DNA from: Camelus ferus
Taxonomy: Eukaryota
DNA: 64,000 bases
Direction of reading: 5' to 3'
Assembly (NCBI RefSeq): GCF_009834535.1
Contig: NC_045696.1
Location: forward strand, 85,004,001 to 85,068,000
Position numbers and translations under genes: made by a program. Positions 15,551 through 61,256 of this stretch are shown piece by piece; the first letter of the stretch is position 1, and each line of letters begins with the position of its first letter. Under the pieces are notes generated by a model, which did not search any database, was not told the origin of the DNA, and saw only the letters and a program-made list of their open reading frames with translations.

Positions 15551-17859
15551 GAAGTCCCATTTACTTTTGTTTTTGTCCCTGTTTTTAAACCAAATTACAA
15601 CTATTCAAGTACATGCAAACTCATCTCATATGAAAACACAGGTAAACACACACATGCATCTAAAGATGAGTACTTGGTAGAATAACAATCATTTTTACCT
15701 AATTTTATTGAAGATAATCTAACTTCTCATATAAAATACCATGTGCAGAATGGTTCATTTATTGTAATTGTATTTGTATTATCTTTTTAAAGGCTTGGGT
15801 TTCTAAAGGAAAGGGACAATACTATTTTAGGGGAAATCTGTATAGTTCAGGTTTTTTATTAATGCCAACCCAAAAGATATGTAAAACATTTTAATGTCTG
15901 GTAAATAGTCTTAAGAAAGAAAAGTTCCTAACAAAAGACCATAATTGTGTGCATGGAAAGGACAGCATTTCTTGCTAAATTGCCTTAAGTGGATTTGCTA
16001 CAGTCTTTCCAAATATAGACTAATATCTTCCTACAGAAGTTGTTAATTGGGTAATTTGATTAGTAAATTGGTTAGAAATAAAAATCCTATTATATATTTG
16101 TGGCAAAATGATTGACTAATTTTCTCCAATAACCATTGTTTATTTCTTGCCTCATTGCACGCCAATGATGTCTTTTTTTAGAGGCCTTACAGAGAACTTC
16201 TAATTCTACCTTTTCTTACAAGGACAGTTTAGAAAAAAATAACTTCATGGATTTGATTCCAGAAGGAGGCACTCTTTGTACATAGATTATGGAACTGGTA
16301 AAATACTCTATTTTAGGACATCAGAAAAACAGTAAGATTGATATATGAAACTTAGAATTGCTATAGTTGATGTCTACAGTCTATTTAAACCTTGGAAATG
16401 TGTTCATTCTGGTTTACCTGAAAATGAGGAAAAGCAAAGTAACATTAATATCGATATTTATAGTACATTAGTACCTATATCATATCCAATACTAGGTGTC
16501 TTACAAATGATTTTGAATTAGTTTATTCTGTCTTTCAGTTCATTTTCTTTAGCAGGAAGCCCTCAACTGCCTGCAGGGCCAGTGTCAGTGTCATGTGTGA
16601 GAACACCAAAACCTGAAGAAAAGTCACAACATGCAGGTCAGAGCCATGATTATTCCATGGTTTGTTGTAAGTGGAGGAATGTGAGGAAGCTTAATGGTCC
16701 TTCCTCAACTCTGTGAGGGCCTTTGTCACCTGGACCCTAAATGAACACACAAAGGCTCTCATAAATACAGGTTCCCTCCTCTATTGGCTGTATTCATTCT
16801 CTACATGGAGAACTAAAATATTCTTTTAGCCAGGTGGGAGAGAAGATATAAAATTCTTTCCAATGCCCTTGTCCTTTCTACTTCTTCATCAGCAACCATA
16901 CCTTCCTCTTTATTCTTCAAACTTTTGCACATAAAATCTGGAAGAGGCCACTTCCACAAATAATTAAACTCAGATTTCCACTTTGGGCTTTTCTAGAACT
17001 TTAAGGTGTGTAAATATGTCAGAGATTCCAAATTCAGTCTTAACTAAATTTGCTTTTTGGTTCAGTCATGAATGAACATGGCTAGACTCTTTCAGTCCCT
17101 CCTATTTCCCTTCATGAATTCTTACTTATGTTCTAGGGAGATGGAATGCAAAAATGAGTAATTTTTCTGTTAAGACTCGGTTGGTTATTAATAATAACTA
17201 TCAGCATTGACAGCAGCACAGAGCTGAACAAGTTATTAGAGGTAAGAAATCACTTCACAATAATTTATTTCAGCTATCTGGGTACAGCTATCAGCAAAGG
17301 AATCAGCAAAGGAACACACTGTAGCCTAAAGAGGTATTAAATAGACATGAGACATCTCTCCACGTTCTCTCAGGAGGAGGAAGTTGGTGAAATATTGGTA
17401 AAGTGGAAGAAAAGTTCTTTGAAGTCTTGCAAATATCTATGAAACTGAATTAAAGTGTTTCCACTGGTTTTGCTGTAGTGATTATAATCTTACCCTATGA
17501 TGAAACAGCAAAGTTAGAATGAAATATCAAAAGATAAAAAATATTTTCGTAATGCTAAGTATTTACTCATTTGTTTTAAAATACTTTAGTAAAGACAGTA
17601 TGATATCAATGAATATGAGTTTTAATCTATGCCTTTGGGGCAGTGTGTTCCCTAATGAGGAATACAACTCCAAGGGGTTTGGAGACCATGTACCAGAGAA
17701 AGCAAACACACTTCAGCCAGCTGTATCATTAGCATAATGAGAGTTAAAATTAGACTGTTACTGGTGAAATGTGTGGTATTGGCTAGAAATATTTTAGAAT
17801 CATTCCCATAAATATCTAAAGACCTCTTCTTGCTTTTCTATCCAGAAGGATACTTCTGG

Positions 17860-18210
17860 TGTTCCAGTTATGTACCAATAATGTATTGGCCCCACATATG
17901 CCCCTTCTGAATTGCTGGAGCTGTAAGTGTGCAAACAATATTTCCCTAACTGCTTTGCTAGGTTTTGACAGAAGGAACTATTGCTTACGAATGGCGGGGC
18001 TGTCAAATGGTGGGTAGATGAAAGATATTCTCTCTCTCTCTTTTTCCTTGCTTCTTTGTAGCATCTCTGGAAGTGGGTGTGCCCTTACACTGTTTCTGCC
18101 ATTGGCTTCAAGGCCCCACCTTTGTGGTCCCAACACCCTGCAAAGAGCATGCTCAGTGATTCAGTAGTAAGTACACTCTAGGGCTCTGATACTACTTCCT
18201 CCATTTTGTT
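17860..18210. mobile_element. Degenerate ERVL-class LTR (LTR33/LTR16-like)
   Basis: GC-richer block with ATTTCCCTAACTGCTTTGCTAGGTTTTG and GCATCTCTGGAAGTGGGTGTG motifs. Subfamily tentative. Confidence 0.4.
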
Positions 18211-18214
18211 GTGA

Positions 18215-18371
18215 TAAAAGATATAACTATAGATATATTTTTGATACAATACATACACATGAGAAATATGAGAAAGAAGGAGAGAGACCGAGACAGGAAG
18301 AGAGAAAATGAGAGAGAGGTATCTCCTATTGATTACTGATTTTTGTCTCTGGGGAACCCATGACTGATACA
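18215..18371 (+). mobile_element. MLT2 (ERVL) LTR 3' end
   Basis: GA-rich tract then TCTCCTATTGATT...TGTCTCTGGGGAACCCATGACTGATACA, matching the MLT2 terminus cctattggttctgtttctctggagaaccctgactaataca. Confidence 0.7.
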
Positions 18372-19279
18372 GCTCCTATGATTTCATGAATCTAACAAAG
18401 AAAAATTTTATTCCTATCTAATAATAAAGTCGAATTTTGTAATAGTTTGTACTGAAATTTACTTTCATTGTCATCTGATAGTAAGGCTATGGATAGGAAA
18501 TCTATGGTACTCATTCACTTCTAACTATTGGAGTGTACTGTATATATTCATTTTTAAAAAAACTAATACTAATTGTCCAATTAACCTTACATTCATTCAA
18601 AAACACATCATTTTGCATAAAATCTTATTACTACTTGAAATGAGGCCAAATATAAATATCTACATTTACCTGAGTTCAGCTGATACAATATACTGAACAC
18701 CAACCAATGCATGATCTGGAGTTATTGTAGTCATTATATGTCCTGAATAATAAAAGGAAATAAGGTAAGTATTATTTAGATGTATCAACAATATTTACTC
18801 ATTATTGTCAAAGGAATAGTTTCTCTGAATATGGAAGAAAACCATAAATATATATTAATTTATTTAATAAATCTGTCTTGTGGTCAATGTTATTAAATAA
18901 CACAAGACAGGAAACAAAAAAAATCAGGAGAGAAAAAGCAATGCTTCTCTAAAAGACTACATTTATTAAGTTGCACAGAGGAAATAGACATTAAGTAAAC
19001 ACAAGTGATATAAAATAAACTTAGAAGTAACCTTTGATAAATTGTCTTTAAGAGTATGTAAAATGTCCAAAAGTAGGCAAAAATAATGTATAACATTGCT
19101 GCCACAAGTTTGAAAATAACTGATAGAAATATACCAAAGATACAGATTTTGCTCCATGCCCCTTTCATACGGGCACAGATGACAGTTTACAACCTACAGG
19201 AAGCCACACAGAGCAGGAGACACAGCAGCACCCAATGGAGGGTCAATGGCAAAATAGCAGAGACCTTGCCAATTTCAGC

Positions 19280-19750
19280 CATCAAAGTATCCCCAGTGCC
19301 AAGGCCTGCACAGAACTGGTGTCTGATAAATACTTGGTAAATTAATAAATGAATGAGTGAATGGAGTGAGCATTAACTAGGTAAACAACGGTGGTGGGGA
19401 AGGGCATTTCAAGCAGAGAGGACAGGAAAGAGGTCAGGAAGAAGGCTAGTGGGCCTGGAAGGTAGTGGCAGGATGAGAATGGTACCAGAGGGGGCTGGAG
19501 AGCATGGCAATAACCAAACGCAGCAGAATCTTAAAGATAGGGTTAGAGACTCTGTGTTTTATCTCAGGTGCAAAAGAAAATGATTGATGGATTTTGAGCC
19601 TGGGAATGGTAATATATAATTTTTATTTTAGGGTATTCCATCCAACTACTAGGTGGAAAAAAGTTGGGATAGAGAGATACTGAAGAATGAAGAAGGAACA
19701 TAAAAGATATAGCAGTATCTTTGAATGAAGACAATGGCTTGGATCATAAT
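19280..19750. mobile_element. LINE-2 pieces (sense 3' tail followed by an antisense fragment)
   Basis: GTATCCCCAGTGCC...AAATACTTGGTAAATTAATAAATGAATGAGTGAATG (L2 tail), then GGGAAGGGCATTTCAAGCAGAG... (antisense L2). Confidence 0.65.
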
Positions 19751-19819
19751 TAATTAATTTCTGAACAAACACACACACACACAGAGTGAGAGACAAAAGC
19801 TTGGAGATTTGAAAGAGAA

Positions 19820-19980
19820 ATGAACAGAACAGGACATGTTCTGAGAATCATGAGACCTGACTTCTGGTCCTTACTCAGCATTAACTAGCCTTGGGTCCTT
19901 GCAAAAGTAAATTAAACCCATCTGTGAAAGGAAAGATGAGACTTAGATGAACTTTTAGGTCTCTTCTAGTTCTACTACTG
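19820..19980 (+). mobile_element. MIR-family SINE
   Basis: GAGACCTGACTTCTGGTCC...CATCTGTGAAAGG...GACTTAGATGAACTTTTAGGTCTCTTCTAGTTCT. Confidence 0.6.
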
Positions 19981-20801
19981 GAGACAATTTAATTTTTGGA
20001 GGAAGTCATTGTTGAGCCTGAAATTTTAAAAGGTCAATTAACAAAAGTTTTCCAGGGAAATATGCTACTAACACAAAAGTTTTCATGGTAATAAAAAAAT
20101 AGAAGTCTGTTTTCAGAGCACTATAAGCAATGCTGAGTTTTAAGACATGATGTAGTTTGCTAATTTATAGGTCGTAGAAAAGTGATTTGAAAGCACTTTA
20201 AACACATAAAAAGTTTAAACACATAAAAATCTATACACTTTAATTTTTTATAAAATCTCTCTTAAGTAATTTTTGAGTTAAAAAGGAATAAACAGTATTT
20301 ATATTTAGAGAATAAGAACACACAACACTTCATATAAAAAATACATGAAATCCACCCAAAATAGTGGCGATGGTATACAGCAAAATCAGGAGATACATAT
20401 CTGCATTATGATTTTTTAAGGAAGCATTGCATTGTATTGCTCTAAACGCTCTCTAGTCATATTAATTTAACTTTAAAAATAGAATAACATTGGTGATGAG
20501 CAACTTGTGAAACATTTTGAAATGCATATCTTATTGGCACTGTTTTTATTTGCTGCCAAAAGCTTTAATTCAAGGAGGGCCTTTCATCTATAATTGTTAA
20601 AATAAGGCCTCATTCTGTTTACTTCTAGGATTCTAAACCTTTCCACAACCTATCAACAGAATACTGCACACCCATTGCGACCTAGTACGTCACTGACACT
20701 CTTCTTCTGCAACTTTATGTAGAAATTTACTATTAGATTCATCTGCTATTCTTCCAGAAAAGGTGGATGGGTTGAGTGAAAATGAAAATTTTAAATTCCA
20801 A

Positions 20802-21358
20802 TATTGAGAAAGAAAAGCGGCCTCTGATATTTAGGTATCACAGATAATGTGTGTGCTACCCTGTTGAACAGAAGAAATTTCACAAAATTCCAGACCACTA
20901 GTATCAGAGAAACAACTGTGCCCACCGTGGAGCAAGGCTATAGCAACATCACCCACAGAGGGGGCTTCTGTGCCCCCCTGGAGGAACACACAACACTGTC
21001 CAAACCACAGAAATCACCAAAATGGCTAACTGGAATGGCTCTTGCTTTTTTCTTGGGGCAGGGGAGGGGTGGAGCAGAGAAAGGTTTACTGCAGCGTCCT
21101 ACTTCTTTACCATAATAATTTTAGGCCTTCTGACTTTTTGATTAAAACTTGGAATTATCTCCCAATTCCTGCGCCATCTACTATGTAGCAAGCCCCATTT
21201 AAGTAAACAAGAAAATACCTGACACAAGCACAAATCCCGTAGTAAGTTCTCTCACTGAGACACCTAATGGTTCCCCATGATGCATGGTCTCCCCCTTTGC
21301 AGTGATACAAAAACACCAATTTCGTCTGACTGCCAATGTCCCTTGAGATTCCTGAGAG
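20802..21358 (+). mobile_element. 5' LTR of the ERV1 provirus
   Basis: Aligns by eye with 29827-30377 (AACACTGTCCAAACCACAGAAAT vs AACACTTTATAAACTAAAAT; GAATTATCTCCCAATTCCTG..CATCTA..TAGCAAG vs GTATTATCCCTACTTTCTG..CATCCAA..GAGCAAA). Ends just before the PBS. Start inferred from TATTG corresponding to TGTTG. Confidence 0.75.
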
Positions 21359-21361
21359 AAA

Positions 21362-21379
21362 TGGAGTTTCCTCCAAGAT
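21362..21379 (+). promoter_or_regulatory. Retroviral primer-binding site, tRNA-Gln type
   Basis: TGGAGTTTCCTCCAAGAT matches the recalled PBS-Gln TGGAGGTTCCACCGAGAT at 15/18 positions (one mismatch is CpG decay) and lies immediately 3' of the LTR. Confidence 0.75.
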
Positions 21380-21480
21380 CCAGCTGAAGCCCTCACTGCC
21401 ACAAATGAAGACCAATAATAGTGGGCGTATTGGCAATCCCTGAGGATAGACCACAGCGAGGCCACCATGCGCGTAGCTGG

Positions 21481-21489
21481 ATGGTAAGC
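21481..21489 (+). promoter_or_regulatory. Candidate major splice donor in the ERV leader
   Basis: ATG|GTAAGC about 100 nt downstream of the PBS, the usual position of a gammaretroviral splice donor. Confidence 0.55.
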
Positions 21490-22049
21490 TTGTGCTCAGT
21501 GGAGCACCAGTATTTTGCTGAGGCCCTTTATTTTTGGGTTTTATTTGGTTTTTGTTTGTTTGCCAAGAAATAAAGTCCTCTGGGAATTTTGGGTGTCTGA
21601 TTGGATTTCTCTTGTTTATTAATGATTCTTTTTCCTACTCTTCTAAATTCGGTTTATAAGGTTTGCTTATTTGTCTTTGTCTTGAGTGTTTTTGTTTTGT
21701 TTTGTAATCTATAAAGGGGCAAAGTAAGAAAATGGTAGAGATTTGATCAGCTTCCTTGAACCAACCCTGAGGTTGAAGGGTTCTTAAGTTCTCCTCAGAC
21801 CAGTTTTGAGAAATATGTCCTCTGCTCATCATTTGAAACCTTGCAAAGAACTTCTTTCTGTCGTAATATTTCAGAGAACTGCTTTGTTCAGTTTTCTTTG
21901 CACAGAATCAGAAGGTTTATGAACTGGTCTTTGCTAGATTTCCAGAGACAAGCGTTTTCAGAAACATCATATTTACTGGTCATTGCCACTCTTAAGTTAC
22001 CACCTTAATATAAAATGTGACTCTTACAGGCCAACATTCTCTTTTTTCA

Positions 22050-22215
22050 GATTTCTTTACTATAATACTAAGTTACATGCCTGTTTCTCAGATTGGCAAT
22101 TCACTGGTATTGACATACCCAATTTCATCAGGATAATTTGGGATTACAATGGCCACTTTTTGGTGAACAGAATTGTCTATTGAGAAGTGCTTAGAACAAA
22201 GAAGAACTCTGAAGG
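22050..22215 (+). pseudogene. gag: gag (matrix-like) remnant
   Basis: DNLGLQWPLFGE (from 22132) then RIVY..LEQRR across frameshifts; resembles the class I matrix WP..G.F motif. Position after the leader fits. Confidence 0.55.
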
Positions 22216-23844
22216 AAGAAAAAATATTTTGCTTAGCGTATGAGATACTCATGTTTCTACTTTGGGGATTAAAAATTTTTTTAATCATTTAGTTTGTCAA
22301 ATTTTTAAGGGCCCAACTTGTTAATTCAACCACACTTTTTCTTTTTGTGTGTATCTATGTCAGAATGCCTTTTACCACATCTAAATTTTCTGCCTTCTCC
22401 TGACAGAGGAAATTACATTAGTTCCTTTTAATGATAATTACATATATATCTGAAATTGTCTCCATTTCACATCATTTTCTTTGTTTTGCTTCTTGTCTTT
22501 TTTCCTTCGATTTTGAAATTTTAAAGATTGACGAGAAAAAAACTAATTGTATTATTATATGCACACTCTAGGAATATCTAATCTGGAAAGGCACTCAAAA
22601 TGTCTAAAAGAAAGATAGAATGGTAATTAAACCTTTTGTTCTTTTTATTACTTTGAAAAGTATATTTGCATAATAACCTTCAATTGTATAGTTTCTGGTT
22701 ACAAAGAAAAGTTCCAAGACAGGAGAAGCACTTTTGGAATGATTTTAATGACTCTTTAAAATTTTGTTTACTATTAAAAAAAAGTCAGCACAAAATTTAA
22801 CTTGTATATAAGATCAGAATTAAATAGATTAAAATATCTCATGATTTAAGCTTAAACTTTCTGAATTTCCTGCATTGGGTTTATGAGTTAAGTAATTTAT
22901 AAGGTGTCTATAACTTGTTAAAAATTATATATATTAAAATATTATATAATACTGAAATATTAAAATATATAAACTAGTATAAGTAATACCTGAAAATTAT
23001 ATATAACTAAATGGAATAGTAATGACTGGTATCTTTTTAAAGAGTTTATTTCATACTATTCATATCCAAAATTACTATTTTAACTAATACATAAGCTTTA
23101 TGTACCAGGTCAATTTCTAAGTAGAGATAGGTACTTAACACCAGTCACTAAGCATCATTTACCGAATTTATTTGAATGGCTGAAGTTAAGAGAACATGTA
23201 AAGGCCATATGTGATATTATATGGGTACATTTCTTTTTTATCATCTCAAAATTTGTTAATATAAAATGAGTTCTCATGGGGAAAAATAATAGCTAAATAG
23301 TTTTCACTGTATCATTTTTTGTTTTGTTTGGTTTGGTATACATTTTTTTCTTTGTAATGAGAAAAAAGGAAAATTATTAATGTGGTTATCCACTGTTTGG
23401 TTTAAATCACTATTTAAAGTTGATGATTAATATAAATGAATGACCAGACTAGGTAAAATAATTATAGGGAAGTATGAATATGATCAAAAGATAATGGATA
23501 TGATTTTCTTCTTGTTTATTAAGAAAGTTCTTACAGTTTTTCAAGGGAATACATTTAATGATACATACATTGTTTTATTTATATATCAATAGTTAATTAT
23601 ATTTTAAAGCTTTGGTTAAAAGCTTTAAATTTATTGCCTATTTGTATGATTATGTATTTTTGTAGGCCTCAATGCAACTATATAAATGTATGTTAATAAT
23701 TAATTCAATATAAATTGTTTCATGAATAATACATAAAATAGGATTTTCTCTTTTATTTTCTGTAAAATGACAGTTGTTTTCTGCTTATATGTAGAGCTTC
23801 CTTTTTGTCCCTAAAATATTCTGTTAAATCTTAACAGAATAATC

Positions 23845-24845
23845 ATCTTCATCATTCAAAGTCCATAGTTTACATTAAGATTCACCAGGGTTGGATATTC
23901 TGTGGCTTTGGACAAATATATAACGACATATATCCATCATTTTGGTATCACACAGAGTATTTTCACTGTCTGAAAAATACTCTGTGCTCTGCCTGTTCAC
24001 TCCTTCCTTACCAGCCCCTGGCAACCACTAATCTTTTTTCTGTCTCTGTAGTTTTACCTTTTCCAGAATGTTATATAGTTGGGATTATACAGTATGTAGC
24101 CTTTTTCGATTGGTTTCTTTAATTTAGTAATATGCATTTAACTATGCATTTTTATTGCATGTTTTTTCATGCCTAGAGAGCTCATTTCTTTTTAGTGCTG
24201 AATCTCTCCATTCCATTGCCTTGCTATACCACAGTTTGTTTATGTATTCCCCTACTGAAGGACATCTTGGTTGCTTCCGTGTTTTGGCAATTATGACTAA
24301 GGCTGCTGTAAATATCTTTCTGTGGGTTTTTGTGTGGACATTACTTTTCAAGACCTTTGGGTAAACACCAAGGAAAGCATTTGCTGGATTATATAGTCAA
24401 AGTAGGTTTAGTTTTGTAAAAAACTGTCAAACTGTCTTCCAAAGTGGTTGTACCACTTTGTATTTTCACCAACAAAGAATGAAAATTCCTGTTCCTCCAC
24501 ATCTTCACCAGCATTTGGTATTGTACATGTTCCAGATTTTGGCCATTCTAATAGGTATGTAGTGGTATCTCATTATTGTCTTAATTTGCATTTCTCTGAT
24601 GACATATGATGTGAGTGGTTTTTTTTTTTTATATGCCTTTTTACCACTTGTATCTTCTTTTGTGAAATTTCTGTTCAGATCTTTGGCTCAAATTTTAATT
24701 GGGTTGCTCATTTTTATATTGTTGATTTTTAAAAATTATTTGTATATTTTGGATAACAGTCTTTCATCAGATGTATCCTTTACAAATATTTTCTCCCAGT
24801 CTGCAGCCTGTCTTCTCATTCTCTTGACATTGTCTTTCACAGAGT
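23845..24845 (-). mobile_element. L1MC-type LINE-1 (ORF2 end plus 3' UTR) nested in the ERV
   Basis: CAAAGTCCATAGTTTACATT...CCCCTGGCAACCACTAATC 3' UTR motifs. Minus ORF 24142-24351 (VHTKTHRKIFTAALVIIAKTRKQPRCPS) is the L1 ORF2 C-terminus. Confidence 0.9.
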
Positions 24846-24944
24846 GAGAGTGCTTAGGTACTCTTCAAGTTAAGAAAAAGTACTCTTATTAAATTTAGAG
24901 GCTGATAAAATCTGCAGATTTGTTTCCAAGATTCTGGGTTCACA

Positions 24945-26730
24945 AAATCCTATTTCATCTTTGTTCATAAAATGTTTGGGCAGGTACTGTTAGTGCCTCT
25001 GAACCTATTACATGGGAACCACCAAAGAGCTATTGTTTGTTTCAATCTTCCATTAAACCCCAAAGCCAAGGCATACCCACCTTGTATAAATGCAGCAGCA
25101 GCAAAAGTGGGGAATGGTTCCGTTGTTTCCATTTGAAGATCTCCACTAGGTTTAAAAATACTCTATGTTCTGTAGACTCTTCTATTGACAGGAAATAACA
25201 CTTCATGATTAGTTGCCTTTCCTCCTGTGAATTAGTGTTGTCTCCCAGTTACGTACCACCATCTATTTCTGCAACACTCTAAACACAGCCACCCTTGTTC
25301 TCTAACCTGGAGAAAAATAAGTCAATATTCTTAACTACATTGAGTACTATCCACACCATGAACAAACTCTCTAGAAGTCCTATGGATAAACTTTATTTAA
25401 ATTTGTTTGTTGATGGTTCCATACTTTAAAAAAGGAGTCTAAAAATTAGCAAGCAAGCTATGCTATCACTGATATGAATTTACTTTGAAACATAGAAGTA
25501 TTCTAGAAATTAAAACAGTTTTATCAACTAGATTCATTGCCCTCACCAAGTACTTCCAACTGACAAATGATAAAAACACATATGTTTATCCTAATAATTG
25601 TTATGATTATGGGTTAGTTGATAATATTAAAATACTTTGGAAGCAGCTGTTTCCTGATGTTTACAGAAGCCACCTTATAGTAAAGCATAACATGTTAAAG
25701 ACATTTTATACAGTTTGCTATTGCTTAAGGAAACAGCCCTTAAGAAGATTGGAGTTTAGAAAAATCCTTCTTGAAAATATTCACAACAGCAGAGATAAAT
25801 TGGCAATGATATTAAACCAAGCTTGGTGGGATGATGTTATGTGTATTTTCCTATGAATGTCCTGCTCACCAAGTACATAACTTTGGCAAGAAGGCAAAGG
25901 TAGGGCATGGACAAGAACCACACTCTAGTCCCATTTGAATTCCTCCCAATGGGCTATAACTGTCTTCTGATTATTGTTGCTTCTTTTTTAGAATGGTATC
26001 TGGAGATGGTTATTGTTCCTGCTTCCTAGTCTGATTTGGGGATTTTCCTTGCAGGCGAGCTATGCATTCTTCCCATTGAGTAAATATCTCATTGTATCTC
26101 TACTATAAGAGGGACACGCTTTTATGTGCCACTGTTCTTTAAAACAATAAAGCTTTAACATTTACTTACAAAGTTTACTTTCTTTATCACTCACAAAATT
26201 TGGAAACTGTAAAGATAACTAATGGAATTCTACAGTTATAAACATCAAAGGTCTTAGAAAGCAGAACACTTACAAATCCCAAAGTATTACCTGTATCCTT
26301 GATGATAATAAAATCAACTATACCTAGGTCCACAAGTTTTCCTGAGTTAATAATCAACTGTCCCAAGAATTTTAGAATTGTGAGATTCCATTCTCTTACT
26401 GGCTAATATGACTAAATGATGCCAGAATACAAGTATACAATAATTCCAGATTTAGTACAAACATACTCAAATCGCATATCTAAAATTATCACCTCAATAC
26501 CTGTAGCATGATCTGAAACATGGAGATTTGGTCTTCTGAAAAAGATATCAAGAAAAACTAATCTTTAAGGTAATGGAAAAGACACTATCTGTTGTTATTA
26601 ACAACTGACGCAACAGTAAAACCGCATAGTGTTTATCCTTTGATTTATGATTTCCAGCTAAAAAAGATATAACTAACTTTTTCATAACTGTATTTAAACT
26701 CCATTAGAAAACCTCAAATTTAGGATTGTA
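24945..26730 (+). pseudogene. pol: pol remnant: RT connection, RNase H, integrase (many stops and frameshifts)
   Basis: Connection: KSYFIFVH..GQ..LHGNHQRAIVCFNLPLNPKAKAYPPCINAAAA (cf. MLV [22 protein letters not shown]) and CNTLNTATL. RNase H: LFVDGS (25403-25420), FIALTK..QL..YVYPNNCYDYGLV..ILWKQ. IN core: PFEFLPM, FPCRRA, ISTIRGTRF, YHSQNLETVKITNGIL, PKVLPVSLMIIKST. IN C-terminal GPY/F region: WKRHYLLLLTTDATVK. Confidence 0.9.
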
Positions 26731-27253
26731 GAAATTCACCAGAAACTGACCACGGAAGTGGTCTGCTTTCACCCAAACAACAGGGTAGACTAATGATTAC
26801 AAAAGTGGGCAGCTTCTCAGCAAGGTGGAAGAGCAAAATTAAATTTTCCAAGTCTTCAGTAGCCTCTTTCTTCTTTTTTTCTATCATTAATCTAGCATAT
26901 TATTACACTCTGACATGCTCTTTTAATTAACAAAAAATTTTCTTAATGTGCTCTTTTTTACCTTCATCTTGTTACTTTTAAACCTTATGAACTTCTGTGA
27001 TTGCTCTGAATTTAACCAGTTGATGGATATGTCATCTCCTACCTAATCTTACTGACAAAAAATAGCTTTTCCTTTAAGCATTTCAGGAGATATGTATTTT
27101 AAAAATATCTGTTCTGATACTTAGGTTTTCCTCAAATAATTAATTCCAGACTTCAGTCTTGTTAATATTGAACTTTGAGTCCATATCAGCAGATATTGGT
27201 GCTGGGAAACTGCAGCAAAATCTATTCCATTACCAGGAGTGGAAAGTAAACTT

Positions 27254-29057
27254 AGAGGCAAAATAGCTGTACTCCAAAAACTGTAAGATGTTGATGAGAG
27301 AAGTTGAAGATGACACAAACAGAAGGGAAAATATATCATGTGCTTGGATTGGACGAATCAATATTGTTAAAATGGCCATACTACCCAGGTCAATACACAG
27401 ATTCAGTGCAATCCCTGTCAAATTACCAATGGCATTTTTCACAAAACGGGAACCAAAAAAAAAGAATTTTTTTTTTTTAATTTGTATAGAAACACAAAAG
27501 ACCCTGAATAGCCAAAACAGTCTTGAGAAAGAACAGAGCTGGAGGAATCATGCTTCCTGACTTCAGACTATACTACAAAGCTACAGTAATCAAAATATTA
27601 TGGTATTGGCACAAAAAACAGAAACATAGATCAACGAAAGAGGATAGAAGGCCCAGAAATAAACCCACACACTTATGGTCAATTTATTGTTGACGAAGAA
27701 GGCAAGAAAATATAATAGAGAAAAGCCAGTGTGTTCAGTAAGCAGTACTGAGAAAACTGGACAGCTACATGTGAAAGAATGAAATTAGAACATTCTCTAA
27801 CACCATGTACAAAAATAAACTCAAAATGGATTAAAGACCTAAATGTAAGACTGGATACCCTAAAGCTCCTAAAGGAAAACATAGGCAGAACACTCTGACA
27901 TAAACTACAACAATTTTTTTTGGATCCATCTCCCAGAGTAATGGAAATAAAAGCAAAAATAAACAAATGAGATCTAATTAAACTAAAAAGCTTTTGTACA
28001 GTAAAGAAAACCATAAACAAAACGAAAAGATAACCTACAGAATGGGAGAAAATATTTGCAATGATGGGACCGACAAGGGATTAATTTCCAAAATATATAA
28101 ACAACCCATACAGCTTAATATAAAAAAAGGGCAACCCATTAAAAAATGGACAGAAGACCTAAACATATTTCTCTAAAGAAGACATAACAGATGGCCAATA
28201 AGAACATGAAAAGATGCTTAACATCACTAATTATTAGAGAAATTCAAATCAAAACTAGAATGAGGTATCATCTCATACCAATCAGAACGATCATCATTAA
28301 AAAGTCAACAAATAATAAATGCTGGAGAGGGTGTGGAGAAAAGGGAATCCTCCTACGCTGTTGGTGGGAATGTAAATTGGTGCAGCCACTATAGAGAACA
28401 GTACGGAGTTTCCTTAAAAAACTAAAAATAGAGTTACTACATGATCCATCAGTCCCACTCCTGGGCATATATTTAGAGAAAACTCTAATTCGAAAAAATA
28501 CATGCACCCCAATGTTCATAGCAGCACTATGTACAATAATCAAGACATAGAAGCAACCTAAATGTCCACTGACAGATGAATGGATAAAGAAAATGGGTAT
28601 GTATATACAATGGAAGATATTACTTGGCTCTAAAAAAGAATGAAATATCATTTGCAGCAACATGGATGGACCTAGAGATTATCATGTTAAGTGAAATAAG
28701 CCTGATAAAGACAAATATCATATGATATCACATACATGTGGAGCCTAAAAAAAGAATACAAATGAACTTATTTAGAAACCAGAAATAGACTCACAGACAT
28801 AGAAAACAAACTATGGTTACTAAAAAGGAAAGAGGGCAAAGGGATAAATTCAGAGTTTGGAATTAACACATACGTACTACTATGTATAATGTAGATAAAC
28901 AACTGTATAGCACATGGGACTATATTCAATATCTTGGAATAACCTATAATGGAAAATAATCTGAAAAATAATATATATCTGAATCACTTTGTTGTACATC
29001 TAAAACTAACACAATATTGTAAATCAACTATACTTCAATTTCTTTTTTTTTTTTTAA
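27254..29057 (+). mobile_element. 5'-truncated lineage-specific (artiodactyl-type) L1 inserted in the ERV env region
   Basis: ORF2 peptides ISCAWIGRINIVKMAILPRSIHRFSAIPVKLP and [32 protein letters not shown]. 3' UTR ends AATCAACTATACTTCAAT. TSD GAAAGTAAACTT (27242-27253) / GAAAGTAAGCTT (29058-29069). Confidence 0.95.
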
Positions 29058-29244
29058 GAAAGTAAGCTTGGGTTTATCCTTGCTACAATAGTTAGATTAA
29101 TCTCTTTATAGACATTCCAGTCTACTTTGCAGGAACTGCTTAAATTTATTCAAAGAATCTTCCCACCTGAATTAATCAATGATTGATTATCTCTTGACAA
29201 TATAAATAATATTATATCCCCATGATTCTTTGCCCTTCTTATGA

Positions 29245-29470
29245 GAATACAACTTCTGCTCTGGAAGCCCAACAAACCAGTTTAAACTTGAATTTGTTAG
29301 CTAGAGTTGCCGTGGACAGATGCATAATCCTTAATTTCTATTTATCTAGCCAAAGGGGAAATTGTCCTATACACTTCTTGCTGCACGTATTTAAATACTT
29401 CAGGTCACATAGAATAGCCTGTGATTCGGATGAAAAGAAAGCTTATTGGATCTTTAGAAATGTCCAGCTG
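29245..29470 (+). pseudogene. env: env transmembrane (TM) ectodomain remnant
   Basis: NTTSALEAQQTSLNLNLLARVAVDRCIILNFYLSSQRGNCPI, frameshift, TSCCTYLNTSGHIE*: heptad repeat, degenerate immunosuppressive domain and C...CC loop of gamma-type Env TM. Confidence 0.85.
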
Positions 29471-29826
29471 GGCTTAAGACAGATTTTTATTGCCTAGGTT
29501 TGATGACTCAGGCCTCTATCTTTGAGGCCTATCACAAAGACTAATAATTTTTCTTGTATTTGGCTGAAGCATTTTGTTCAGCCTATTAATGCTACTCTCA
29601 TTTCAAATGCACCAGAATGAATGGCAAGAACTAATTTTATTCAAACTCACACAATGTGCTGTGAACAGCCTCCTAAAGAGCAAATCTTGGCAGGAGTGAG
29701 CATCTGAATCAAAGACTACACCCTAAGTCCTCACTTCATCTACCCTTGGACAAAAGCAGGGACCAAGAAAGAGGAAAGTACTCCTGACAGTAAGTAGCTG
29801 ACTCAACTCTAACAGTTAAGACTTGA

Positions 29827-30377
29827 TGTTGCTAGAAGTTGGTCTGATACAACGAAACTCTGATGATCTTATGTTGTACATAAAAAAATTGTACAAAACA
29901 CAAATATCAGGCAAGGCCACTTAACGACCATGATGGAAAAAGAACAAGTGTGACAGCTTAATAATCATGTCTAGGCACAGACAAATGCAATAACACTTTA
30001 TAAACTAAAATAATGGCTAAACACCCACTTCCTGATTAATATATATAACTGCTATGTCTTTCAAAATTATAGCTTTAACTCCACTTTGTTATTCCCATCT
30101 TCTAAATAAAAATTGTTAAGATACTCAAATACAGTATTATCCCTACTTTCTGAGTTCATCCAATCCAGAGCAAAATCCTGCTTCATTTAACCCTCTGCCA
30201 GACTGCTTAATGGAAGCACAGCTCTCGTATGTAATACATCCTGTGGGTACCCTCTTAGTAGCTACAAAGTATAATAATTATCCATTATATGTGTTTTCAT
30301 TCAGCAGTAAGCCAATCCAACTTTATTCAACCATGGATGTCATTCAATTATTTGTCTTTGGCTGAAGGACATCAACA
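29827..30377 (+). mobile_element. 3' LTR of the ERV1 provirus
   Basis: 551 bp bounded by the inverted repeat TGTTG...CAACA, downstream of env, similar to 20802-21358. Confidence 0.85.
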
Positions 30378-30799
30378 AATACGAATACAGAAGGAAAGAC
30401 AATAGGCATTCTCTTTAAGATATGACTAGTATACTTAATTAAAAAAACTTTATATTTTGGTTTATAAAAGCATAATATGTGTATTGTGTTAAACCTGAAA
30501 AAGAAAAAAAATTAAAATTCCATAATCCTACTACAATGAAAATAATCATTTAACATGCCCAGGTACATCTGTATAAGACTTGCCGTTATCTTTCAACACC
30601 ATCTACCATTTTAAGCAAAGTTCAAAAAACTGCATAAATAAAAGAAATTATTACACTACACTGTGGTACGTTCTCAAGAATTTCCTTTTTTTAATAGTTA
30701 CATTAATATAAATAGCAACATAAAAACGAAAAAATATTATCTATAAATAATGATCCTCTGTATTAATATAGAATCTCTTCCAATTTTGAATTAAACACT

Positions 30800-32594: not shown

Positions 32595-32652
<58 letters not shown>
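32595..32652. repeat. (CA)29 perfect microsatellite
   Basis: Uninterrupted CA run, directly visible. Confidence 0.98.
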
Positions 32653-32654
<2 letters not shown>

Positions 32655-33355: not shown

Positions 33356-33384
33356 CTTTAAAAGACTTTAACTTTCAAAAGCAT

Positions 33385-34200
33385 TTATCCATGAATGGGC
33401 ATGTGGACACTTAAGTTGTTTCCATGTCTTGGTTATTGTTAATAGGCTGCAGGTAGCTTAGAGGTGCAGATATCTCTTTGATAAAGTGATTTTGTTTCCT
33501 TTGGATATACGTTCGGAAGTGAAATTGCTAGATCATATGGTAGTTCTATTTTTAAATTTTTCAAGAATCTCCATAGTGTTTTCCATGGTGGCAATACCAA
33601 TTTACATTCTCACCAACAGTGCACAAGAGTTCCCTTTTCTCCACATCTTCTGCAGTATTTGTTATCTCTTGTCATTTTGAAGATAGCCATTCTAACAAGC
33701 ATGAGGTAATACCTCACTGTGCTTTAAAATTGCGCTTTCCTGATGAGGAGTGATGTCGACGAGCCCATTTTATGAACCTGTTGGCCATTTGAATATCTTC
33801 AATGTATGATTTGTACATATTTGCTGCCATTCTGTATGTTGATTTTTAATTTTGTTGATTGTTTCTCTTGCTGTGCAGAAGCTTTGTGGTTTGATGTAGC
33901 CCACTCATTGATTTTTTATTCTGTTGCTTGTGTTTTAGGTATCATCCAAAAAATTCATTGCCAAGACCTATGTCAAGAAGCTTTTCCCCTATATTTTCTT
34001 CTAGGAGCATTATGGTTTCAGGTCTTACATTTAAGTCTTTAATTCGTTTCCAGTTAATTTGGGGTAGTGGTGTTAGATAGGGATCTGGTTTCATTCTTTT
34101 ACATGTGAATGTCCAGTTTTTTCCAGCACTATTTATTGAGGAGACTGTCTTTTCTCCATTCAGTATTCTTGGCTCTCTTGTCAGATATTAGGTAACCATA
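33385..34200 (-). mobile_element. L1MA/MB-type ORF2 fragment
   Basis: GGTGCAGATATCTCTTTG...ATTGCTAGATCATATGGTAGTTCTATTTT...TTTCATTCTTTTACATGTGAATGTCCAGTTTT: antisense L1 ORF2. Confidence 0.9.
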
Positions 34201-35811
34201 AATATTTGCTGAATTAAGATACATGCCCATCTACATCATAAAATATTACAGGTCAATTAACTACTTTATTATGAGGATGGTGGAACAAACAGTAAAACAT
34301 GCACCACGTGATGGTTTATAGGAAGCATAATGATATGTACAGTGTCATTTTAATAACGTGAAATGTGTACATGTGACAATAAGAATTTCAGAACAATATG
34401 GAAAAACAAAACTAGCCATACCAGGGTTGGAAAATTATGAATAAAATTATCTTTGACCATGATTTTTGCATGGTGGTAATCTAGTCTAGAAGAAAAAAGA
34501 CCAGAGTTTGTTGATACCATTGAGGAAAGCCCCAAAACAAAGACAACCTGTTACACTCAGAGAATTTAAAAGTCTAAGAATATCTGACCTGAATAAAACA
34601 TGTTTTTTTCCTATGAGAAGCTGGTTATGTAATATAACAAGGATGACTTTGAATTATTGCTTAAGAAACTGCAATAGAGAAATCAGATAATATTTATATT
34701 AGTAGTTAATAAAGTTCATCCATCTCATAACACTTTCAGCAAATAAAATTCCCAGTCAGTTTAACCTCATAACTATTCCTTATGCCCAACTGTACAATCA
34801 CCTAATTAACAACTTTATTCTGTCTTAGATCATCTGGTGCTTTCAAAGGTCAATATTTGTATAAGTAGCAGGATATTACATGTGTTCTCTTGGAAACATA
34901 GAATGAATTAAGAAAATAACAATTTAAAATTTTATTCATGTTAAAGGCTCACTAGTCACATGTGAGCACATTATGTTCTTACTGCAGTCATGGGTCAAAG
35001 GTTTATAAAAGTTAAAAAAAGAAAAAGGAAAAGAAAGGGCAGATTCTGTCCTTGCAGTATTTCACAGTTGTCTCTCACTTCACCTCCTGTCCCTCCTCCC
35101 ACGTTGGTTGACAGCATTCAATGCCTCAGTAATTACAATATCAGTGATATTCTAAGAAAAAAAGAGAGAAGTGGCCTACTTAATTGGAACTTTAATTCAG
35201 ATTTGTAGGATCTGAGCCTTTGTTTGTGAGTCTCAGTATTTTAGGACATTTTAGCTTTGCCCATGGTCACTGAAATGTTTTCAATCCGATAATGAAATGT
35301 TTCCAGATGGATGTGGACCTTACTTGCTTTGACACCAGTGATACATTTTGTACTTTCCCCCATGTCTAGCATCTACTCGCTAGACCAAATTAATAAAACA
35401 CTTCTTAATTATACACATTGACTGGGTGACATATCCAAGAAGTCCTCTTTACAGGTGAAAAGAGGTACAAATTAGATTAACCACTCTGTTAAAAATATAA
35501 TGAAATGTAGCATAATGGAACAGTAAAGAACATTAGATCCTGGAAAACAAAGAAGAAATATTTAACAAAATAAATTTTAATTCCATTTAACCAGAATAAA
35601 AGTTAAATTAGAATAATTCCCTCAATTATGATTGAAAGCACCCCATAAACATGCACTACTGCTATCTCCTCACCCAGTGCTATTTCCCTTCAAGTCTTCT
35701 TTTATTAGAACAGTTGTCCCTTTGCCTTTCCCTCACACATACTAATTCCTGCTTGTGCCGTCATTACATTTAACACCATGTTATATCTTATTTTATACTA
35801 TGATTACTTAT

Positions 35812-37589: not shown

Positions 37590-37756
37590 GGGGGGAGGTT
37601 ATAGCTCATGTGGTAGAGCACATGCTTAGCATGCATGAGGTCCTGGTTTCAATCCCCAGTGTCTCCTTCAAAATTAAATAAAGAAATAAATCTAATTACC
37701 TCCCCCCCAAAAAAACCTAAATAAAATCACTCTTCAAAAAATAAAAATAAAATTTT
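37590..37756 (+). mobile_element. tRNA-derived SINE, camelid type (Vic-1-like)
   Basis: GGGGGGAGGTTATAGCTCATGTGGTAGAGCACATGCTTAGCATGCATGAGGTCCTGGTTTCAATCCCCAG with Pol III A/B boxes and an A-rich tail. TSD AATGATCTCATTAT (37574-37587) / AATGATCTCACTAT (37757-37770). Confidence 0.88.
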
Positions 37757-43620: not shown

Positions 43621-45362
43621 ATGAGCAGTTTATAAATTGCAGAAGACAACTATGAGAAAAACACAGCAAAGCAGATAGAAAATATGGTCCCTTTCCAGGG
43701 TTCATTCGTGTAACACAACTATATTCACAAATACACACAGAGTAAGGAAACTGCCCCAAATACTATTCAACACGAGACATATATCTCTTTAACTTATAGT
43801 CCCACATGGTAGTTTGCCAGATAAAGTTTTAGTGTGATTTTATCTCTTGGGTATATAAACGGCTTTCAGAATCTTTTTCTTTTATAGCATTACCTTTGGG
43901 TGGTAACATTCAGTGCAGTAATACCAAAGTATCTGAGAAATCATTCTGTAGAAAGAAGTCTTTTGGCACTGTGAGCCTATGATAACCTAAATGGTTAATC
44001 AAATATATATTTTCACCTAAAAAAAAAATACAGTGTCCTACTTAGTAGTCAGAAAATAATTTGAAGTCAAGTTCTTCACTTCAAAATAATAACAAGGATA
44101 TGTTGCCAAAATAAATGGAAATGTTCACTTTGGTCTGCTGTTTGATATATCGAAGATAAAATAGCTTATTAGCTAGGAAAGAAAAATTATTTTTACGAAA
44201 GTTTCTGGAGCACTTAATTTCTTCCTAATCCATACTCCTTTAACTATTTTCTTTTGAAGACGCACTGAGCTACTTTAATTGGGAGAAAGCTGATAGAGGC
44301 AGCTGCTTTAAATTCCAACTTTTCTCTCAGCTAAATTAATTTTTGGTATTTACAACCAGGGTCCATAATGTTAGCCACCATGGACTGGCTTTAACATTTT
44401 TATAGTCATTACGGTATTTTCTGTTTCTGTAAATATAGTAAACCCACTTTAAATACTTTACTAGGGACAGAGGGCTCTGTTATAAAATAGGGGAGAATAA
44501 GTCGGAGGAAATAAAAATAAATTAATAAGAATGTTACCTGGCAACTTTAATAGCATGGTAATAATAACATGTGCTGAACCTTCAGTGAATAGTTTTAGTA
44601 AACAGAAACGTAAGCTCTCAAACTTTAAAACCCCAGCACGAGCAAGCAGGCGTCTTCTAGCAAAAGGGGATTTATGCTCTTCAAGCTTGGTCCTGCAGCT
44701 GGAAGACAATGAGCACAAAACTCAGGTGCACAAGAATGTGCTCTTGCTCACTAAAGTTGCTCTTCCAGACAGTGTGCAGCCAGGAAACTTTAATATTGCC
44801 CACATAAATTTCAAGAGGCCTATGAAATCATACTCCACCTGTCTTCCAACTTTGCACGTTTTAGTGCAATTTTCTCTGCTAAATGGTGTATAATAAGGAG
44901 AGAAATAAATTCTGGTATAAGACTAGGTCATTAACGGTAAATAGCACAAGCAGAAATGATAAGCTGGTGAGCTGAGAATCAGAAGCATTTGAAAGCCAAG
45001 TCAGATAGCCTGGAATTTCCAGTCATAGTAGGAGGTTTATCTGTTGGCATTCTAATACCAGAGACAAAAATGCCTCTGGTGTTGAACCAAACCACTTCCG
45101 TTATATCAATTAGAGTATAGAAAAAGCATGTTTAGTATTTGCATGTCGAGCTAGATAGCTTGGGAGAAGTAGGGCCAGGGAGAGAAATGGCAGGACTTTC
45201 ACTAATTAAATAGTAGGTATGAAGAGAAGGTAGCGTGGCAGTAACAATAGAATTTTGGGGGGAATGCCATGTTACTATTTTTAACCGGTTAATATTTTCT
45301 TAACCTCAGGAATAGCTACTCACATTCTGATGGATTTCCATTAACAGTAGAAAGCAGGTGTA

Positions 45363-45420
45363 CACCAGAAACTAATACAATATTGCAAATCAACTATACT
45401 TCAATTTAAAAAAAAGAAGA
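45363..45420 (+). mobile_element. 58-bp extremely 5'-truncated L1 insertion
   Basis: Matches the last ~45 nt of the L1 3' end at ~28995-29040 plus an A tail. Perfect 14-bp TSD AGAAAGCAGGTGTA (45349-45362 / 45421-45434). Confidence 0.93.
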
Positions 45421-52444: not shown

Positions 52445-52925
52445 CCAGAATTCTCAAACTTTATTGTGCACCCATATCGTTTGGGACTCTTGTTAAAGTG
52501 CAGTTTCTTTCTTTCTTTCTTTCTTTTTTATTGAAGTACAGTCATTTACAATGTGTCTGTCTCTGATGTACAGCTCAATGTCCCAGTCATGTATATACAT
52601 ACATATATTCGTTTTCATATTTTTCCATTAAAGGTTATTACAAGATATTGAACATAGTTCCCTGTGCTATACAGAAGAAACTTTTAAAAAAATCTATTTT
52701 TATATATATTGGTCAATGTTTGTAAATCTCAAACTCCCAAGTTGACCCCCTCCCACCCCCTTTCCCCAGTAACCATAGGATTGTTTACTAAGTCTGGGGT
52801 CTGTTTCTGTTTTGTAGATGAGTTCATATAAAGCGCAGCTTCTGATTGAGGATTTCAGGGGTGGGGCTAGGGAGCCTGCATTTCCAGTGAGCTTACAAGT
52901 AGTGCTGATGCTGCTAGTTCCAACG
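52445..52925. mobile_element. MER5A-like hAT transposon split by an L1 insertion
   Basis: Left part TTCTCAAACTT..CTTGTTAAAGTGCAG and right part TTCTGATT..GGGTGGGGC..CTGCATTTC..TGCTGATGCTGCT flank an L1 3' end. Confidence 0.75.
52509..52828 (-). mobile_element. Lineage-specific L1 3' end (~320 bp)
   Basis: T-rich tail then TTATTGAAGTACAGTC...TTACAAGATATTGAACATAGTTCCCTGTGCTATACAG...GTCTGTTTCTGTTTTGTAGATGAGTTCAT. TSD TAAAGTGCAGTTTCT (52494-52508) / TAAAGCGCAGCTTCT (52829-52843). Confidence 0.9.

Positions 52926-61206: not shown

Positions 61207-61254
<48 letters not shown>
61198..61254. repeat. Compound microsatellite (GAA)4(TAA)15
   Basis: Directly visible; produces the poly-Leu ORF on the minus strand. 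Confidence 0.95.

Positions 61255-61256
<2 letters not shown>

Follow-up and report, generated by a model that had tools for sequence, protein, structure and literature searches.

The window analysed here is a 64,000-nt stretch of Camelus ferus NC_045696.1, and all positions given below are window coordinates. It contains a decayed endogenous retrovirus (ERV) of class I (ERV1) that makes no protein and is inactive. The element is an internally deleted copy with two long terminal repeats (LTRs), in which the LTRs, a primer-binding site (PBS), pol and the transmembrane (TM) part of env stand in proviral order on the same strand around two L1 inserts. It is probably the non-coding relic of one epsilon-like integration of the MER4 group (HEPSI) in an early placental ancestor, into which the two L1 elements were inserted later. 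An earlier note on this DNA had described a very old, inactive class I ERV with an L1 inside, and this is supported. Of the gag, pol and env remnants that it listed, pol is confirmed and env TM is found with a weak score, while gag is reduced to one short motif, with its profile scores at background.

The retroviral origin is carried by pol. One frame, with X at stop codons, gave five phmmer matches at E<=1e-3 among 1.84 billion proteins, two of which are Pfam-annotated retroviral reverse transcriptase (RT)/RNase H proteins from turtle and coelacanth. Through one of these two, 120 longer relatives were gathered, and the set used for tblastn comprised 131 proteins. In tblastn, 25 of the 131 produced 48 high-scoring segment pairs (HSPs) at E<1e-3 and the reversed window produced none; bins at E<0.05 all lie within 24900-26669 on the forward strand, save two weak matches near 5 kb. 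In a frameshift-tolerant comparison with retroviral profiles, pol is clearly above the controls: 116.3 bits for the whole remnant against a top control score of 25.7 (24 tiles), 58.8 against 22.4 for the segment from RT connection to RNase H (31 controls), and 47.2 against 19.6 for integrase alone (48 controls). Profile and tblastn bear out, on the forward strand, the colinear RT connection, RNase H with its LFVDGS motif, and integrase that had been proposed. Relatedness of pol to gamma- and epsilonretroviruses supports the membership in class I.

The pol gene is dead. Its profile path runs over positions 838-1540 with nine frameshift steps, 481 matched codons and 214 deleted positions (about 214 of 703), and a long deletion near 25712-25772 fuses the end of RNase H to the start of integrase. 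LFVDGS sits at the first catalytic position of RNase H, where the acidic residue is kept; the other catalytic residues are changed or lost. All three catalytic positions of integrase had been thought substituted; two indeed carry non-acidic residues, whereas the first falls within a deletion of nine positions. That integrase extends through its C-terminal module is suggested by two adjacent pieces that match Pfam MLVIN_C at positions 1-17 (E 0.082) and 23-43 (E 0.034), both below the curated cut-off and the sole weak matches from ten short pieces scanned. Plain hmmsearch on three pol pieces gave i-E values of 0.004-0.02. Pfam scans recovered no retroviral family, either from 24 whole frames or from 26 shorter pieces. 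Two pieces of the window used as queries in word-index protein searches likewise gave no retroviral match, nor did PDB sequence searches and the atlas, because the remnants are too decayed for these methods.

The limits of the LTRs were set from their TG and CA ends, the PBS and the purine tract, and the 5' LTR begins at 20805 rather than at 20802 as previously placed. The PBS lies directly 3' of the 5' LTR, and a purine tract precedes the 3' LTR. The PBS matches the tRNA-Gln(CTG) primer, as printed in PMC7744096, at 15 of 18 positions and is the sole such site in 64 kb (3 of 100 shuffled sequences give one), in agreement with the Gln primer proposed before. A Thr primer, compared by eye with the PBS table in PMC4724089, matched at 12 of 18 positions and was rejected in favour of Gln. 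The outer flanks agree at four of five positions, for which the chance is 0.023. The two LTRs resemble each other end to end in a global alignment, which scored above all 300 shuffles and above 1243 other tiles; they are weakly alignable, as had been noted before. A first alignment with lenient gaps scored within the chance range, and the local alignment is marginal, being reached by 1 of 200 shuffles and exceeded by 7 of 308 tiles. A pattern search found no copy of the LTR in viral or metagenome contigs. The 5' LTR also contains a G-rich stretch of 20-odd nt (21070-21092) with no counterpart in the 3' LTR, which attracts short unrelated contig matches.

A TM stretch with an immunosuppressive-domain-like part and a Cys motif lies 3' of pol, though its score is weak (23.7 bits with a profile built from only two distant envs; reached by 1 of 200 shuffles and exceeded by 2 of 166 window tiles). 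No Cys motif other than that at 29373-29402 occurs in the six frames of the window; 0.05-0.125 such motifs would be expected. Most of the surface subunit (SU) has likely been lost. Profile searches gave no match in the provirus to capsid (CA), nucleocapsid (NC), protease (PR) or the RT core. The slice with PR and RT core reached 15-16 bits, a figure compared only with the control of the neighbouring slice (median 18.5). The whole-gag profile (16.9 bits against a control median of 16.0) and a matrix (MA) profile of seven gamma-type Gags (13.9 against 13.85) are at background, and the only trace of gag is an LQWP motif at 22144, one of three in the window against 0.43 expected. The term near-full-length is therefore wrong: CA, NC, PR and RT core were not found, gag comes down to a single short motif, and over half of gag-pol cannot be detected.

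Table 1. Coordinates of the provirus, its inserts and the associated splice features in the window.
Feature	Position	Strand	Characteristics
Host-side exon	18062..18166	+	105 nt; preceded by pyrimidine tract and AG, followed by GTAAGT; spliced to 21303 in one RNA contig
Left target-site duplication	20800..20804	+	5 nt; 4/5 match right copy
5' LTR	20805..21361	+	begins TG; GC 44.7%
Splice acceptor in 5' LTR	21288..21302	+	pyrimidine tract and CAG; exon starts 21303, one RNA contig
PBS, tRNA-Gln type	21362..21379	+	15/18 match
Splice-donor-like site, leader	21480..21489	+	cut after 21483; putative, from sequence only
Possible gag MA trace	22114..22170	+	LQWP motif at 22144; not significant by profile
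AT-rich stretch	22300..23844		~26% GC; no retroviral protein match
Older L1 fragment	23845..24845	-	67% identical to younger L1; poly-A end, target duplication not seen
Pol remnant	24942..26669	+	RT connection, RNase H, integrase to C-terminal module; ~9 frameshifts, large deletion
Presumed 5' env remnant	26680..27253	+	inferred from position only; no significant match
Younger 5'-truncated L1	27254..29057	+	12-nt target duplication 27242-27253 / 29058-29069, 1 mismatch
Env TM remnant	29243..29426	+	immunosuppressive-domain-like stretch and Cys motif, one frameshift between
Polypurine-tract-like stretch	29751..29763	+	sequence
3' LTR	29764..30377	+	ends CA; GC 34.9%
Right target-site duplication	30378..30382	+	5 nt

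The span of 9573 nt is made up of L1 inserts (1001 and 1816 nt), LTRs (1171 nt) and internal sequence (5585 nt), the last including about 1.5 kb of AT-rich DNA of unassigned origin. The older L1 fragment is presumably of the L1MC type. The younger L1 removed no sequence on insertion, since its 12-nt duplication is clean. Further L1 fragments at 33384-34201, 45359-45407 and 52595-52827 are 67-90% identical to the two inserts.

To place the element, 97 of the 120 references were scored against the pol DNA, the 23 with fewer than 550 residues in the region being dropped. The 14 mammalian references like murine leukaemia virus (MLV), two of them with Gag p12, scored 25-49, whereas the top 20 of the 97 (81.6-120.3) all lie outside the MLV-like clade; they are fish, newt, turtle, opossum or unnamed proteins from the other half of the reference-only tree. 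By these scores, from a biased reference set, pol is not closest to the MLV-like clade, and the label gammaretrovirus-like suits the element in the broad class I sense but not in the strict one. Motifs and literature point the same way. One six-residue TM motif occurs only in two HEPSI envs in the human ERV (HERV) supplements of PMC4724089, the TM stretch overall resembles HEPSI TM entries by eye, and the only Gag with LQWP in these supplements is that of PRIMA4, a HEPSI member. In two parts of the supplements, a Gln PBS is given for MER34, with a question mark, and for no other group. HEPSI is described as an old, defective, epsilon-like branch of class I that overlaps the Repbase MER4 group, whose proviruses are called highly defective in a supplement (PMC4724089), and in Repbase MER67 is paired with MER31_I under HEPSI (PMC5753468). 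The reference scores are a lead with which these observations agree, and HEPSI affinity appears quite probable. Judged from the pol scores, the element would be better called epsilon-like class I (HEPSI/MER4 group) than gammaretrovirus-like. Membership in the MER31-int/MER67 family is somewhat favoured, through a putative resemblance of the LTRs to MER67.

Several known elements are comparable. MER31_I (MER31-int), with its MER31/MER67A-D LTRs, is also old and highly defective class I (PMC5753468; PMC4724089), and the epsilon-like pol and HEPSI-like TM and MA motifs seen here would suit it; in the supplements of PMC4724089 the single chain assigned to MER31 is listed with a Leu PBS and no reconstructable proteins, unlike the Gln PBS and readable pol and TM of the camel copy. 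MER34-int/ERVMER34, the source of the HEMO env, is a HEPSI member of about 100 million years with a possible Gln PBS (PMC12704712; PMC4724089), which the camel copy would resemble, a likeness drawn from descriptions. HEMO is a full env open reading frame (ORF) under selection, while env here is interrupted, frameshifted and likely without most of SU. The ERV-L orthologue older than the placental divergence is likewise a very old provirus dated by nested repeats, but it belongs to class III and its orthology across placentals was demonstrated, whereas the present element is class I with suggested orthology (PMC3758187). MLV-like gammaretroviruses share the class I layout, the MLVIN_C-like integrase tail and the TM Cys motif, yet they are the lowest-scoring clade among the references (25-49 against up to 120). 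The copy likely belongs to an old ERV1 family that is already catalogued, and the earlier suggestion that such old copies are rare is not supported, as such families are catalogued in Repbase (PMC5753468).

The distance between the LTRs is too near saturation for dating. A pre-eutherian age had been proposed as possible from the weak LTR alignment and the L1MC-type insert, but it is not implied by the insert, because L1MC1 and MER34 were still inserting at superordinal splits: marker insertions include an L1MC1 for Supraprimates and a MER34 for Laurasiatheria (PMC1395351). Insertion before the eutherian radiation is possible, though rather doubtful, while an age at or before the laurasiatherian split has good odds. 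Precedents of about 100 million years (PMC12704712) and 104-110 million years (PMC3758187) would bound an estimate of about 80-110 million years.

Four database ORFs, P0001, P0002, P0004 and P0130, are 52-71% identical to the window pol, in frame. The RNase H-integrase junction is common to the window, P0001, P0004 and P0130, and the altered RNase H motif is common to the window and P0002. In simulated neutral decay, identity was 60-66% when K was 0.20-0.25 and fell to 33-39% when K reached 0.5-0.6, so that the ORFs are closer to the window than the LTRs are to each other (about half the distance), as orthologues split after the insertion would be. The four are likely orthologues in other mammalian orders, as judged from these comparisons. 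P0001, P0002, P0004 and P0128-P0131 are spurious short ORFs, likely of the same dead locus in other mammals, and protein collections list such entries as though they were genes. No copy was found with P0130 as a query in metagenomes. For the pol stretch, 0.98-1.00 of its words were present in 15 sequencing runs, 11 of them possible sources, with both species labels covered.

Four sequencing runs were mapped onto 20300-23800. One organism B run covers flank, LTR and leader with five listed differences from the window; an organism A run gave short spurious pieces only, which proves nothing. Five contigs, all of them between 21303 and 22728, came from an RNA run of a reproductive-system library, which had no contig further upstream. 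The first contig has 107 foreign letters before 21303, and the end of this segment is an exact match to 18144-18164. In this contig 3136 nt (18167-21302) are removed as a GT-AG intron, which DNA cannot mimic. New in this analysis is an RNA contig that joins an upstream 105-nt exon to an AG in the 5' LTR. The contig extends 4 nt beyond the splice-donor-like site of the leader. Two further letters ahead of the 105-nt exon suggest another upstream exon, and the 105-nt exon itself lies in what we take to be another old LTR (~17800-18380). A weakly expressed non-coding RNA of the host probably contains the LTR end and leader as a late exon, and the host transcript may be read as using a ready-made LTR acceptor, a passive and putative role. 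RNA or possibly-RNA runs with 0.32-0.45 of the pol words may be DNA, and run X20 (0.08) is no evidence.

The history that fits these observations would begin with a tRNA-Gln-primed genome whose integration made a short target duplication. Like many MER4-group copies, this genome probably had internal deletions beforehand, being without CA, NC, PR and RT core, and would have been copied in trans. The older L1 would then have inserted immediately before the RT connection, its 3' end being lost afterwards, the younger L1 would have entered env cleanly, and neutral decay would account for the remaining damage. The only activity seen is passive, the pyrimidine tract and AG of the 5' LTR accepting a splice from the upstream exon.

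Several results weigh against this history and the affinity given to the element. LTR identity is 61-64% with 207-223 gap positions and a Kimura two-parameter distance of 0.51-0.59, close to the 57-65% that shuffled sequence gives over aligned columns, and LTR pairs in human HEPSI diverge by only 13-31% (PMC4724089). The LTRs differ in GC by 10 points and the 5' LTR lacks a terminal CA. Some non-MLV references also score low (37-50), and the reference set was recruited with the coelacanth protein, contains no named epsilonretrovirus and was used for scores, not a tree. Six short window motifs are absent from the HERV supplements of PMC4724089. The ORFs taken as orthologues are the best of 1.8 billion, which biases their identity upward. 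The splice is seen in one contig of depth 6.5 from one run, and five raw reads of a second RNA run show and add nothing.

The LTR figures would also suit a chimera, in which two related old ERV1 insertions, or a provirus and an independent LTR of a sister subfamily, supplied the 5' and 3' parts separately, with recombination or deletion at the older L1 joining LTR, PBS and leader to pol, env and LTR. Near-saturated LTR divergence and the GC difference agree with this, as do the loss of the 3' end of the older L1 exactly between the two halves and the frequency of mosaic forms in the MER4/HEPSI group (PMC4724089). The 4/5 target duplication at the outer ends, the common strand and correct order of the parts, and the end-to-end LTR similarity speak for one integration, which appears fairly probable and is likelier than a chimera of sister subfamilies; the latter seems unlikely. 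If the element were instead a gammaretrovirus-like provirus, near-complete and predating the eutherian radiation, the part order and the very high LTR divergence would also fit, and precedents exist at about 100-110 million years (PMC3758187; PMC12704712). This is very improbable, as CA, NC, PR and RT core were not found, MLV-like references score lowest, and L1MC1 and MER34 insertions continued after the boreoeutherian split (PMC1395351). Chance motifs in AT-rich intergenic DNA would explain why whole-frame Pfam, PDB, word-index and atlas searches lacked retroviral matches, but for pol this is refuted by 116 against at most 25.7 bits and 48 against 0 HSPs; with the PBS and Cys motif both unique and correctly ordered, its probability is negligible. 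An extended form of the preferred single integration, with an epsilon-like provirus fixed before the superordinal split, orthologues with both LTRs, pol and env across mammals, and a 5' LTR whose higher GC is maintained by its use as a spliced exon of a reproductive-tract non-coding RNA, appears improbable as a whole.

Many such copies exist in mammalian genomes. If the orthology is true, the present one would be a fossil with a date for the MER4/HEPSI group, which is poorly resolved. It would offer readable pol and env traces, a Gln primer site and two nested L1 clocks, and presence or absence of the locus could serve to mark early placental splits. The LTR splice would add to the natural examples in which a host RNA takes a splice site from an old LTR. 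Neither would surprise a specialist. No published description of the locus was found in searches that could not name it, hence of little weight.

The surrounding window is AT-rich mammalian DNA (34% GC), and none of its 11 ORFs of at least 110 codons is recognisable by eye as protein-coding. The single tRNA call, a tRNA-Ala at 37593-37669, falls in a short interspersed element (SINE) span (37590-37750) that has a flanking duplication and a tail rich in A, and is best taken for a simple, vic-1-like SINE, not a tRNA gene; vic-1 is such a SINE of camels (PMC3531059). Two perfect microsatellites are present, (CA)29 at 32595-32653 and (AAT)16 at 61208-61256.

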